Origin: Flaccisagitta enflata | Lineage: Eukaryota | Direction: 5' to 3' | DNA length: 64,000 nucleotides | Assembly: GCA_965153355.1 (NCBI GenBank) | Contig: OZ231126.1 | Location: 10,292,001 to 10,356,000, forward strand | Shown here: in pieces, positions 38,888 to 46,000 of the stretch | How the letters are laid out: each line of letters starts with the position of its first letter | Numbering within the stretch: position 1 is the first letter of the stretch | Notes under the pieces: generated by a model | The model's input: only the letters and a program-made list of their open reading frames with translations | What the model was told of the DNA's origin: nothing | Database searches by the model: none | Position numbers and translations under genes: made by a program

Positions 38888-39661
38888 CTAGACAGCTGAT
38901 GAACACTCAAACGCGCGATTAACTTGACCGTATTCAGAGGTGGGTCTACTGCGAGTGAAAATCAAAGGCATGCGCAGCTCGGCCAAAGATGACCGGAACC
39001 AAACCCCGATATCGGCATCTTCAAAACGGGTTTGACGAATCCTAATTAGCTTTATAGCAAGAAATCCCACAAGTAGAAAAGATAATATCAAAAAAACTGA
39101 TAGTGCCACAGTGGCAGCGAAATACGAGCCGTGTCCTTTGATCATTGCCGGGTTTATTCTAGCCGCGGGTGATGCTTCGGTGGTGGTGGTCGTTGTTGTT
39201 GTCGATCCATGATGGCCGTCTTTTGTCGTTGTTGAAGAGATTTCCGGTGCAATAGTTCGGACCTAAAAAGAGAGAGAGAGAGAGAGAGAGAGAGAGAGAG
39301 AGAGAGAGAGAGAGAGAGAGAGAGAGAGAGAGAGAGAGAGAGAGAGAGAGAGAGAGAGAGAGAGAGAGAGAGAGAGAGAGAGAGAGAGAGAGAGAGAGAT
39401 AAGGACGGCCACGCGTGAATGGAAAAATATTCCGAGATTGCGACTCCACCGTGAGATTATGCTAATGTGATCACGATCGACTAATAGACCCATCTGCTTT
39501 TTAGTCACCTGATCAGGTCCGATCTCACCCCTGACAAGGGTGAGGCCAACAAACACGAGAGCGCAGATCACTTTCCACCACTGGCTAATCGAATCTTTGC
39601 CAGTCCGCCGGAGATGCCGCCGTTTGGCCAACCGGATGAAAAGCCACGCGTTCGCTTCCAT
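38888..39661 (-). CDS. Small mucin-like type I membrane protein (~175 aa, 2 exons: 39661-39509, 39262-38888)
   Basis: Signal-like WWKVICALVFVGLTLVRG. CAG|GTGACT and TTTTAG| splice sites are both phase 0. Thr-rich stalk, TM ATVALSVFLILSFLLVGFLAI, tail with SEYGQV and C-terminal SSAV. AATAAA at 38656-38651. Confidence 0.7.
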
Positions 39662-41315
39662 AATCCCAGCTGAGGGTCCCGTCTTGCGGTAGGTTGTGAT
39701 ATCTCGGCCGAGAAGCGGGGACGGTGGGAACCGGAATGGGCGCTGCCCGCAGGGAGGCTGTTGTTAGGCTGTAGTAGTTTTCGCTTGGTGGTTCGACGTA
39801 GGTGGGCGATGAAGAATCGATGTCGATGCGAAATTGCGTTTCATTGAACGAGTTGTTGTTGTTGTTGTCGTTGTCGTTGTTGTGAATATCGGCTCTTGTT
39901 GTTGATGTCAAATTATCGTAAATGCTGTCTGGAGAAGCTGAAGAAGATTGAGATGGAAAACTATTGAATGGAACGACGGGGACGAGGTAGCCAGAATTTA
40001 GGCGACTTGCCAGAGTAGGGACGGTAGGAAGAGGAGGAGGTCTTGTTTTATTTGCTTGTCCAATGGTATCGACGATAGTCTCGGGTTTGTTGCAGTTGAA
40101 TCCAAATTTGACGCACAAAACCAGTGAAAAAATGATGAGGATTGAAGAAAGGGCACCAAAGATGGCGATAAAGAGGACAGTATTGTTTTTAACTGCAGGG
40201 TTGGTTATTGGCCCAGGCACGGGGATCGAAATGTTGGCGATTTTTGATAAATCCGTAGTGAAATTTCGGGGTTGTGGAAGAAAAGCCGGAGAAGTGGGGG
40301 ACAAAAGCAAAGAGGAAGTTTGGAAAGTGGGAAGAGAACGGAAAGTTGGATATGAAGGATAGGTGAATGTTGAAAGGAAAAGTGCCAGATGATTTGAAAT
40401 TCGACGTAACTCGGACGTGGAAGTAGATGACGGTCTTTTTGTAATTTTTCGATGGGGGTTTAACTGTGCTGCTCGGTGAAAGAGTTCCAAAGAGCGTGAG
40501 CGTGCCCGAGTGTTGGCCGAGAATGAGGTTGTTGTGGAGGGCACCGTGCGTGAGTTTGTAGTGGGCACCGTTGTTGATTTTGTGGGTGCTTTGGTGCTTC
40601 TTGATGGCGTTGTAAATCGATTTGCGGAATTTGAGGACGATTTTGGCGATTTCCTTGGCGTATTTGTGGGCGCCGTAATCGGTCGTGAGAACGTTGACCA
40701 CGTGGGCACGGCAGCCGTAAATGTTGTTGAGACTCGTGATGAGCGAGTTGTAGGCGCCCGTGTGATGGGAGATGATCTAGGACGCGTCGCTAGTGTTCCA
40801 TGTGTGTATGAAGGAGTAACGAAGAAAGCGGAGGAGGAGCGAGGAGGAAGAGGAGGAGGAGAGGAGGGTGGAAGCGTTGGTGGCGGTGATGATGGAACTG
40901 TAGACGTTGGAGGATCCACTAGTGAATGCCACTCTCCATGGGATGGGTATCCTTGCAGCCATTGAATACACGATGATTTCGCGTGATCATAATCTTCGTC
41001 CCATCCGTGTACCTAGTCAAAGAAAAAGATAAAAAGTGGTGATATTGCATGCTTCTGTAAACGCTTAAAAATGTTTCTATTAATGAAATAAGGGGAAGGC
41101 TAACAGATTTATAAACCTACCATGTCTCTCACACAAGAGTTAAACTGATTAATCTTTTCATTGTGTGTGTCTCTTGATTTCCGAGATAGTTTGGCAGATG
41201 ACGGGAAATAGAGGATGTGAGGCAAGATTATCATAAGAATAAACCACAGGTGTAATTTCACTGGTTGAGACTGATTGTTCTTGGTTTTTATTGTTTTTCT
41301 CCGTAAGACTGCCAT
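39585..41315 (-). CDS. Mucin-like type I membrane glycoprotein with Tyr-motif tail (~540 aa, 2 exons: 41315-41121, 41012-39585)
   Basis: Signal-like LHLWFILMIILPHILYFPSSA. ATG|GTAGGT and CTAG| sites join in frame across a 108-nt intron. Two-Cys head, S/T/P stalk, N-glycosylation sequons, TM VLFIAIFGALSSILIIFSLVLCV, tail with SIYDNL, YVEP, YYSL, YHNL. Confidence 0.8.
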
Positions 41316-42890: not shown

Positions 42891-43046
42891 GAAAAAAAAC
42901 CGTGGAGACTCTCAAACATTTGTAATTGTATAGTTAATTTTCCGTTAAAAATCCCTCAATTGTTAATCGATCTTTTCATTATTTTCTGTATCATTCAAAC
43001 TATTTTCATCTAAATTTTTTAATTGCTCAGTGATTGATATGACAAG

Positions 43047-46000
43047 ATGGCGGGGTACGATAAAAACATTTCTACTATGCGAGCACAACTGCGTGTTCCA
43101 GTGACACCTGGGTTAACTCAAGCAGAATTTCAAACTTTGGAAATTTTATATGAGCATTGCTCCGGGCAATGCAAATGTCCGGCGATTAAAATCTGCAACA
43201 TACAAAAACTTAGTCCTAGTTATGTTGCCGGCCTCGCGTTGCATTGTTCATCATTATCCAACGTGCTGACCTATGCACCAACCATACAGCAACCACAGCA
43301 ACAACATCAACAACACCATCCCATCGCCGTGGTGCGTGCTCAACAGCATTTGGGTACAACTACATCATCAACATCATCATCATCATTGCCCGATCAAACT
43401 CAACAACAACATCAACAACAACATCAACAACAACATCAACAACAACATCAACAACAACAACTCCATCATCTCTACCCCCGTCTATGACATATCCTTACAA
43501 AACGCTATTCAGCGACAAACAGCGTTCAACAACAACCCGTTGATAATCACCAGCATCTACAATATTATGCGTCATCATCATCATCATCATCGTCAAATCC
43601 GCATCATTCAAACCCCCCACCTGTTAATGTCGACAGTGATGGTTTCCTAACTCCGACGTCCGAGACAGTCACCCTCGAATTATACGGCACTAGAACGCTG
43701 CCGTCGTCGGTGCCCAATGCCGCGTCGGCGCCGGAACCCAATTTTATTTCTCTGGAGTCGTTTGCCGCCAAAACCTCGCCGCCGGTGCAATTGGTCAACA
43801 ACGCGGTGGGTGCGGTAGATGCGGAATCCGATTCCGCGGACGAGTTTGTACGTAGAGTCTATGAAGAGGCCGTTGGCCAAGTGAAGATACCGGGGCTTTC
43901 TACACCGCCGGAAGACGATTTGTCACTGCCTTTATCGCCGGAGTTATCGACTACACACTCGGCGGACCTTTCAAACGCGGCGAAACAAGTTGAAGTCCTC
44001 ATCGGCGTTCATCACGATCTTTCAGGTAAGAATTCAATTTGTTTATTTGTTTATGTATCTGTTTATGACAACGAAAGGCAATGAGAGGCAAAGAGAGGCA
44101 AAGAGAGGCAATGGGAGGCAATGCAATGGCAATGAAAGGCAACGAGAAATATGTCCGATTGATTGGCTAAGCCGCAGAGTCTAGGCCATGTCATTCAGCT
44201 CGATAAGATTTCCTCCTTGACGACGACGACGATGACGACGAATCTTCATGACAAAGATGACGATGCCGACGACGAGAACGAATCCGGCCGCGCAGACGAT
44301 GACCGCGCCAAGTTCGGCGTCAGAAAGACCGGAAAACCACCTGTTGTTATAGATGACATAATGACACAATGATAACGTCAATGACGTCAGTGAAACCCAA
44401 GAAGACGTAATCTATAAACTGCATAAGAAGTGTGTGTGTGTAAATGTGTGTGTGTGTGTGTGTGTGTGTGTGTGTGTGTGTGTGTGTGTTTGTGTGTCTA
44501 ACCCATTGCCGCCGCGGCCATCGTCGTCGTCATTCCTCGGCGCCGCTGTCGGCACGATCATCGGGTCGGTCGACACGTGGGCCGGACCGATAGGCGTCAT
44601 CGATGACGTACTGACCGACGGACGGACCGATGAACCAGTCGGTGGATTGAAAGGAGAGGAAGAAGACGAAGCGCCGGTGGCGATGGTGGTGGTGGTGGTG
44701 GTGCTGCTTGAGAGAGGAGCACAAAGCTCCCAAGCCTCGTCGGTGGGATAATCGTTGTCTTCTGTAAATGATATATTTAGCTATCATCAGATGAAACTAC
44801 ACCAAGATTGACGAGAGATATGTCCGATTACTCTTAAATATCACAGATAAATCACCTTTATCCAAGACGCAATCCTCGAACGATGGCGCTGCCATGGTGA
44901 TGATGATGATGCTGCTGTTGTTGTTGTAGGATGATGCTGTTGCTGTTGTTATTATTGTTTTGTTATTGTTTGTTGTTTAAGTAGGAAAGAAAACTGATGA
45001 GAGAAACGGAACACAAGTTATTTACAAATATTTCATTTTTTTTTTTTTTGCAGATGAACTTTTGGGCATTATCGACGATGAAGTCCAAGAACAAGACAGA
45101 GATAAAGACGAAGCCAACGATGCTCCAACGACGATGGTTCCAACAACGGCTTCAACTCCAAGAGTCGGCAAAATCGGAATCAAAAACATAAATTTGGCTA
45201 CGAATCAACCACCCAAACGGCTCTCACGCGAGTTTGACCACAGTCATCAGCAACAACATCATCATCATCAACAACAACAACAACAACAACAACAACAACA
45301 ACAACAACAACAACAACAACAACAACAACAACAACAACAACAACAACAACAACAACAACAACAACAACAATCAAACTCAATGCCGGACCATCTTTTCCAG
45401 CTAAATGACAAAAGGGAGGAAGTAAACATGGATCTGGCGGTGGCCAAACGCCGGAAAGTTCGACACGAAAATCATCTTCAGTCTCTCGGCGGAGGCCTCC
45501 TTGTTGATCACGTATCGACGCCTCGTCAGGATGCGAGTGGATCGGAGTGTCCATTTCCTTCGTCTTCGTCCACTTCATCGCGTGAGCTTATTCAACATGG
45601 AAAAAGCGAAAGCGCCCACGCCTTTGCGACGAACACTGCCACACCCGTTGTTGCAGGCGATTTAGCCTCCACTCGTCCATCGTCGTTTCTTCAACCATTG
45701 GCGCGGATGCCGACCCCAAGACCCGCATCGTCAACACCGGCGCGCATCACGAGCGCCGTTTACACGCCACAAGTGGAAGAAGTAACCCCGCCGCCGCCGC
45801 CGCCGCAGCTACCGCGGGCGTCGGGAGCATCACCCGCGCATCAACAACGTCGAGGAAGGAGCGTCCCCATTCAGGCGAGAGGAAACCAAACCACTGCGTC
45901 GTCCAGCAACCCAGGCGCAACTTGCATCCCTCCGACGCATCAACCTACGGAAAGGAGAAGAAAAGTATACCCATGTAGTCATTGCCCCACCCGCACGCGC

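Follow-up and report, generated by a model that had tools for sequence, protein, structure and literature searches.

Vaccinia A36 is a single-pass viral membrane protein whose disordered tail carries Nck- and Grb2-type phosphotyrosine motifs, as far as the available text of PMC9333988 goes, and the orthoreovirus protein p14, from a non-enveloped virus, is described there and in the accessible part of PMC7244324 as recruiting Grb2/Nck, N-WASP and Arp2/3. The E3 unit of adenoviruses (E3/49K, CR1 family) is a variable unit of several glycosylated single-pass proteins with tyrosine and sorting motifs in their tails, encoded by a non-enveloped jelly-roll virus (PMC13437282, available portion). For adintoviruses and Polintons, the accessory genes PLA2X, GasderminX, Cupiennin, Oncoid and Bcl2 are named in the accessible text of PMC8502044. 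The locus described here lies in a window of 64,000 nucleotides (the whole stretch of DNA that was analysed) from Flaccisagitta enflata (assembly GCA_965153355.1, contig OZ231126.1, positions 10,292,001 to 10,356,000), in which three minus-strand genes, here called A, B and C, stand at the left end of a 29,682-bp Polinton/Maverick that starts at 38188 and ends about 3.8-3.9 kb past the window. Judged from the comparison of element lineages, A, B and C are real genes and form a conserved left-end module. With moderate confidence we read them as a host-interface module, in which B would recruit Nck-type adaptors and actin in the manner of vaccinia A36, A would be a PDZ-anchored mucin, and C would be a signal-less partner sharing the head of B.

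The three genes are spliced, and each encodes a protein with a single transmembrane segment (TM). Their exons are:

39509..39661, minus strand: gene A exon 1, with a basic n-region, signal peptide and predicted mature N-terminus EIGP
38888..39262, minus strand: gene A exon 2, with a 45-aa Ser/Thr (S/T) stalk, TM at 39053-39109 and a 54-aa tail
41121..41315, minus strand: gene B exon 1, with a basic n-region, signal peptide and the first Cys of a Cx18C pair
39585..41012, minus strand: gene B exon 2, with the second Cys, a 245-aa S/T/Pro stalk, TM at 40110-40178, a juxtamembrane Cys and a 174-aa tail
44856..44895, minus strand: gene C exon 1, with Met and the first Cys of a Cx17C pair, without signal peptide
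44503..44761, minus strand: gene C exon 2, with the second Cys and an S/T/Pro stalk
44181..44340, minus strand: gene C exon 3, with an LSDxELG-type motif, TM at 44247-44303, an Arg-rich stop-transfer and a 21-aa Tyr-free tail

Every intron in the models has GT-AG ends and preserves the frame; that of gene B is in phase 0 and lies four codons past the first Cys. The reading frame of gene A, which differs from that of B, begins within the final 77 nt of gene B, and the stop of A lies 700 nt from the element terminus. The tail of A holds SEYGQV (38921-38938), NRAF and the class I PDZ end SAV; that of B has a Pro-rich stretch and seven Tyr (YLVP, YDNL, YVEP, YYSL, YHNL), with SIYDNL at 39909-39926. 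Ser and Thr make up a fraction of 0.36 (A), 0.36 (B) and 0.48 (C) of the stalks, and each protein has one hydrophobic segment, the best 19-residue Kyte-Doolittle windows being 2.86, 2.69 and 3.13 in turn. Models, S+T fractions and hydropathy hence bear out the original prediction of three genes with an S/T stalk, a single TM and a tail, and the motifs SIYDNL, SEYGQV and SAV are present where it had placed them.

The same prediction had regarded all three proteins as type I. Topology and signal peptides were judged from hydropathy and flanking charge only; A and B agree with a type I topology, each having a signal-like stretch after a basic n-region and one TM, both conserved across lineages. 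The charge bias around the TM is weak in A (+2/+1), none is seen in B (+1/+1), and it is strong in C (+7 after the TM, -2 before it). Gene C departs from the type I description: a signal peptide is absent in three lineages including the window, where an in-frame stop lies upstream, and its Met stands a few codons before the Cys pair in the window and in two other lineages. As there is no signal peptide and the charge bias places the N-terminus outside, C is likely a type III membrane protein. The proposed cassette from 38888 to 44895 holds in part as well, with A and B overlapping by 77 nt but C ending at 44181, 2.9 kb from the start of B, with plus-strand open reading frames (ORFs) in between. 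The one RNA run available, from the same study, shows no reads on 39410-41390, which is uninformative, as the run stems from a related organism and not from the host: on a host control gene its reads are only 90-95% alike, with fixed differences.

Evidence that the module is real comes from other lineages of the same genome. Fifteen further element loci were taken from 44 matches to the protein-primed type B DNA polymerase (pPolB) in the host genome, and 13 upstream regions were scanned for motifs. Six of these regions (the window, C1:108.6M, C7:17.9M, C8:24.4M, C1:110.9M and C1:104.5M) have the motif [QE][LIM]GP on the minus strand close to the left end, immediately behind a signal-like stretch; the remaining seven lack it. 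These six lineages have 20-31% pPolB-core identity to the window, and the five of them included in a quick penton tree are spread over both sides of its midpoint. Gene B lies upstream of A in all six, and a C-type TM exon occurs in five (weak in C1:104.5M), none being found in C1:108.6M. In five lineages, a total of seven Cx17-18C pairs are interrupted by a GT-AG intron four codons past the first Cys, in one case a base later; two further such pairs are unsplit. Stalk length and stalk sequence differ freely from lineage to lineage. Outside this genome, the metagenome protein P0201 from ENA is 68% identical to exon 2 of A and contains two near-invariant tail blocks.

Selection was assessed against a second copy of the element, which is 89-96% identical and is cut off inside B; every start and splice site within its extent is unchanged. 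Over the 309 codons of B and C shared with it, 26 of 49 differences are synonymous, compared to an expectation of 31% computed with transition weighting, and the ratio of nonsynonymous to synonymous differences (pN/pS) is 0.39 (P 0.001). On this comparison B and C, in the part shared with the second copy, are under purifying selection. Four of the five other frames of B and C gave no signal of purifying selection; the antisense frame sharing third positions gave the same signal (pN/pS 0.44). As this frame mirrors the signal, the test cannot fix the strand, which is instead fixed by the lineage comparison. Together with the frequency of chance hydrophobic ORFs in these elements, the mirrored signal is what could be said for an artefact, in which low-complexity antisense frames of a repeat-rich element would mimic mucins and TMs by chance. 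Such an origin would have to produce the intron at the same codon in seven Cys pairs, a QLGP-type motif at the same place after the signal peptide in six lineages and an outside homologue in P0201, and we give it almost no weight.

For A, the proposal that SAV is a class I PDZ ligand turned out to be strongly supported: five of the six position-defined A genes end in the class I pattern [ST]x[VIL] (SAV, TEL, SAV, STV, TGV), with P ~1e-7 by shuffling and 1.6e-6 at the control-ORF rate of 15/309, and the sixth ends in ISV, a class II pattern (classes as defined in the available part of PMC4810129). A hydrophobic block 15-25 residues after the TM of A is also conserved and is invariant over 17 residues in P0201. 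The combination of a mucin, a TM and a class I PDZ end, as in A, is known from the podocalyxin/CD34 sialomucins, which are host genes. With podocalyxin-type mucins as the analogy, the long S/T/Pro stalks, free to vary in length and sequence, and the PDZ anchor on A would also suit a steric or anti-adhesive coat that shields the cell or repels further infection, its tails merely anchoring it. Such a coat could do without the conserved peptide at the N-terminus, the conserved Cys pair and the multi-Tyr tail, which makes it a very unlikely account of the module as a whole.

The tyrosines were first seen as ITIMs (inhibitory motifs of the immunoreceptor tyrosine-based type), by which the tails of A and B would recruit SHP2 and lower immune or growth signals in the element-carrying cell. 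SIYDNL and SEYGQV do fit the ITIM consensus, SEYGQV is unchanged in P0201, one other-lineage A tail has two ITIM matches, one other-lineage B tail has an ITIM at the aligned site, and SHP2 is present in the host. The motif is not enriched across lineages, with matches in two of nine A-type tails (0.55 expected) and three of six B tails (1.21 expected; P ~0.10 each), and shuffling of the window's tails yields an ITIM in 24.5% of cases for B and 5.5% for A. Four of the six position-defined A tails lack an ITIM, and the Tyr aligned with YDNL of the window is found as YDSV, without the ITIM residue at -2, in two lineages and as YYTL in a third. Conservation of the Tyr motifs is thus seen for SEYGQV in P0201 and not for the ITIMs across lineages; the ITIM reading did not rise above chance, and ITIM mimicry appears decidedly unlikely.

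A different pattern emerges in the B tails. The Nck motif YDxV, with the extended form pYDxV(AYST)x(DEC), according to the accessible text of PMC2661883, is found in three of six B tails (0.16 expected, P 0.00035), one of them with a complete match to the extended form. Taken together, the B tails contain ten YD sites compared to 3.25 expected, and 12 Tyr preceded by a hydrophobic residue compared to 5.4 expected. In two lineages the last B exon opens with LYD directly after the acceptor, and one such exon adds YDDP and YDTP. A Cys stands within a few residues after the TM in five of the six B tails and at the TM end in the sixth; juxtamembrane Cys residues are typical of palmitoylated adaptors, and a juxtamembrane Cys followed by a multi-Tyr tail, as in B, is known from LAT-type adaptors. 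Two B tails have PxxPx[RK] runs. In one lineage six residues of the B tail are identical to the Nck site of A36, and another B tail has IYQNT, which resembles the A36 Grb2 site (A36 sequences as given by primers in the available part of PMC9333988).

The scheme that we infer from these observations comprises glycosylation, phosphorylation, binding and a role in spread. A and B would enter the secretory route via their signal peptides and C via a signal-less type III route, and O-glycosylated stalks would raise a small head, the QLGP-type peptide in A and in B and C a Cx17-18C hairpin closed by a disulfide, toward a partner. Once B is clustered and its YD-x-V/P/L sites are phosphorylated by kinases of the Src/Abl type, Nck or Crk would be brought in, Grb2 could bind at the YxN sites of B, and WASP-Arp2/3 would follow. 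The C-terminus of A would tie the complex to junction or polarity scaffolds with PDZ domains of the Dlg/Scribble/MAGI type, and particles or infected cells would be helped to reach neighbouring cells. The host has spliceosomal introns, and its genome gave 61 SH2 matches, among the 32 examined of which SH2 exons of the Nck, Grb2 and SHP2 types are present. MHC class I did not turn up in a search of this genome that lacked a positive control. At the aligned site, B of the window is a better match to Grb2 or SHP2 than to Nck, and the choice of partner may therefore vary by lineage.

Besides the mirrored antisense signal, several points weigh against this scheme. A36 has its place beneath a virion that is enveloped, and neither an envelope protein nor a connection of the module to the capsid was found here. 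P0201 as called continues 57 residues beyond SAV, so that the PDZ end is not terminal there. At the aligned site B of the window has YDNL, a match to the ITIM consensus and, as YxN, to Grb2, and no strict YDxV occurs in this B; YxN itself is not enriched in the B tails (three of six, P 0.47). Two broader patterns, with YDx[VPL] present in five and Y[DE]x[VPL] in all six of the B tails (0.88 expected for the latter), were picked after the tails had been viewed. Motifs in the B tails were counted exon by exon, the last exon being a prediction in three of the tails that were counted. As the lineages are related and the pattern was picked post hoc, the P values overstate independence. A language-model feature search with the TM and tail of the window's B placed three unnamed arthropod clusters first (0.87); among named families Orthopox A36R (PF05950) scored highest at 0.85, and opalin, syndecan, UL132 and the adaptor SCIMP (0.81) came lower. 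All scores were below 0.9, and these matches are leads only.

The tails could also be explained by trafficking of the E3 type, with the Tyr, di-hydrophobic, NxxF/Y and PDZ motifs acting as sorting signals and the heads binding host receptors in order to remove or reroute them. The overlapping genes A and B form one leftward unit near a genome end, NRAF in A of the window has counterparts in NPAF, NPGF and NPLY in other tails, and the conserved hydrophobic block after the TM of A would suit a sorting signal; in E3/49K, LL and YXXphi motifs serve AP-1/AP-2 sorting (PMC13437282, in its available text). Sorting needs YxxPhi only, which leaves the excess of YD and of hydrophobic residues before Tyr unexplained, as it does the PxxPx[RK] runs of the two B tails. 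None of the A, B and C exons scanned gave a Pfam match, and there is thus no immunoglobulin (Ig) or CR1 head. Trafficking of this kind is an unlikely explanation. The broader idea of the original prediction, that these are cell-surface modulators of a capsid-bearing element by analogy to adenovirus E3, holds.

For gene C, its lack of a signal peptide, its Cys pair and the basic run after the TM recall the FAST proteins (fusion-associated small transmembrane), and p14 is described as coupling fusion to actin (PMC7244324, accessible part), so that C might fuse cells as a type III protein with a Cys loop and polybasic tail, B adding actin force. The ectodomain of C comprises about 110 residues compared to about 20-40 in FAST proteins (available text of PMC2267009), its mucin stalk would keep membranes apart, and its tail has 21 residues; a fusogen of this type is highly improbable. 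Mucins without a signal peptide, as in C, are known from glycophorin C. No homology of the module to podocalyxin/CD34, glycophorin C or LAT-type proteins, all of which are products of host genes, was found by Pfam and protein searches.

Compared with the described systems, B would resemble A36 in its predicted membrane-anchored tail with candidate phosphotyrosine motifs, in the motif identity seen in other lineages and in A36R being the best named feature match. It differs from A36 by its signal peptide, Cys pair and 245-aa stalk, and in the window by lacking a strict YDxV; the ectodomain of A36 is nearly absent. Pfam gave no sequence homology between the two, PF05950 being among the families without a match to B exon 2. 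The proposed use of Nck/Grb2 sites by a membrane protein of a non-enveloped virus would be shared with p14, which belongs to an RNA virus, has a very short fusogenic ectodomain and lacks a mucin stalk. Unlike E3, the module has no CR1/Ig domain, takes a terminal position upstream of pPolB and ends in a PDZ ligand, and the tail of B measures 174 aa compared to 19 aa in E3/49K. By analogy, the module would work like A36 or p14 and is laid out like adenovirus E3, being a member of none of them. The premise that an element with a non-enveloped capsid needs no glycoproteins, on which the original prediction had built, is not general, as a nematode Maverick encodes the type I membrane fusogen MFUS-1 (10.1101/2022.07.12.499685, available part); unlike A, B and C, this is an 866-aa gB-like fusogen and not a mucin with signalling tails.

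The module is apparently undescribed. Published descriptions were not found in the accessible Polinton and adintovirus literature on membrane, signal-peptide and PDZ terms, with subscription papers and bioRxiv supplements being outside this scope. The available main text of PMC8502044 does not contain 'transmembrane', 'glycoprotein' or 'envelope', and its supplements may annotate such ORFs; that of the later survey 10.1101/2024.03.25.586562 does not contain 'mucin', 'signal peptide' or 'PDZ', and the membrane passages in the accessible part of the Pannagram preprint concern retrotransposon env. As the exons are short, split at microsatellites and of low complexity, Polinton annotation based on ORFs would miss A, B and C. 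Homologues of B exon 2 at E<=0.01 were absent among proteins of near and shorter lengths (longer ones were not searched); its TM and tail found nothing in metagenome contigs and, in the host genome, only itself and two spurious matches. The integrase profile found nothing in viral contigs, and the penton nothing in metagenome contigs. With the contig searches for B, integrase and penton being empty, no outside locus shows the context of the module. A feature search with the Cys-pair head of C from another lineage gave no usable match, and the nucleosome-tether pattern [LT]RS[GK] is absent from the left-end minus frames of all four elements tested.

Capsid genes have so far been the main argument in the debate on whether animal Polintons live as infectious viruses. 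A conserved set of surface proteins whose tails signal to the host would suit an agent that faces neighbouring or defensive cells, and would suit a germline transposon much less. In the favoured reading, a capsid-encoding element would be able to act on nearby cells in the way of a poxvirus; this suggests that the A36/p14 strategy has emerged anew in a third virus group, with Nck, Grb2, SHP2 and PDZ scaffolds as candidate host partners. It is a somewhat unlikely extension that Polintons are true viruses with a machine for spread from cell to cell, B being a convergent A36 that starts Nck-WASP-Arp2/3 actin at the surface, A acting on PDZ-organised junctions and C being a signal-less partner. 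If this were true, A would open or target junctions through its tethered QLGP peptide and its E-[ST]-x-V tail, and actin-driven spread would exist in the group thought ancestral to adenoviruses and poxviruses.

Some lineages deviate from the arrangement of the window. In C1:110.9M, gene B opens with a QLG-type N-terminus like A and not with a Cys pair, and A and B contain frame breaks; as this N-terminus is A-like, A and B may be paralogues. The elements C4:17.5M and C3:2.3M have one gene with a Cys-pair head and a tail with PPTP ending in YETAV, which combines the B/C head with an A-type end and has a signal peptide in one lineage and none in the other. Together with C1:111.5M, these loci had been taken as A-type genes, which would give PDZ ends in eight of nine; two of them are Cys-pair genes near pPolB, and all three were dropped. 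The module is absent from a 20-kb lineage (C3:99.3M, C8:71.3M) with intact ends and from two poorly delimited loci, and the left end is gone from one C7 copy. The 44 pPolB matches correspond to about a dozen lineages, and many of them lie within C1 103-112 Mb, where Polinton insertions may be clustered. The second copy of the window's element has an insertion of about 6 kb in the TM exon of C and further insertions in pPolB and integrase.

The carrier element is a Polinton/Maverick: its termini are inverted repeats beginning AGTAG, with AG...CT ends and a 6-bp target-site duplication. Its landmarks are:

38188..38253, no strand: left terminal inverted repeat, beginning AGTAG; 6-bp target-site duplication GTGAGC
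46793..52186, plus strand: pPolB-like ORF of 1797 aa, assigned from motifs and synteny
63047..63946, minus strand: penton (minor capsid protein), assigned from its predicted fold, with the integrase next, past the window end

The integrase matched rve at E 3.2e-6, below the curated cut-off, and its profile matched foamy-virus integrase at E 0.002. The penton model has a predicted local distance difference test score of 91.8, with mavirus and adenovirus pentons as top structural matches. For the major capsid protein the assignment uses only its position and its resemblance from element to element. Motifs like Walker A and Walker B, split by introns, as well as a His motif make up what was seen of a possible packaging ATPase and maturation protease, a family scan giving no match. 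The pPolB-like ORF gave no match in a Pfam scan; it has polymerase motifs resembling A, B and C, of which B and C are non-canonical, and relatives have a canonical motif C. Motifs B and C are atypical in both copies of the window's family, yet the core has a pN/pS of 0.14, which points either to an unusual active site or to a family relying on the polymerase of another element.

At 37900-38187 the insertion is seen to lie within a short tandem repeat of the host; one intact repeat unit, at about 38030-38060, shows the site as it was before insertion. The plus-strand ORFs that separate B from C occupy 41967-44084, where other lineages have unrelated-looking long ORFs. The frame 42116-42854 among them has a pN/pS of about 1.5 between copies and is either a doubtful frame or a relaxed or fast-evolving gene. 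A Gln-rich ORF with a Cys/His-rich C-terminal part lies just upstream of pPolB (44981-46792), similar ORFs occur in two other lineages, and Oncoid genes are placed upstream of PolB, in the position of this ORF, in the available text of PMC8502044. In the late region, 56410-57069 contains another hydrophobic segment (Kyte-Doolittle 2.78) and possibly encodes a small membrane protein, and the ORFs at 57675-58523 and 62286-63089 are strongly Arg/Gly-rich and resemble core or DNA-condensing proteins. The candidate protease, presumed major capsid protein and candidate ATPase genes (58815-62289 and L011 2549-3500) are interrupted by several introns, often at microsatellites.

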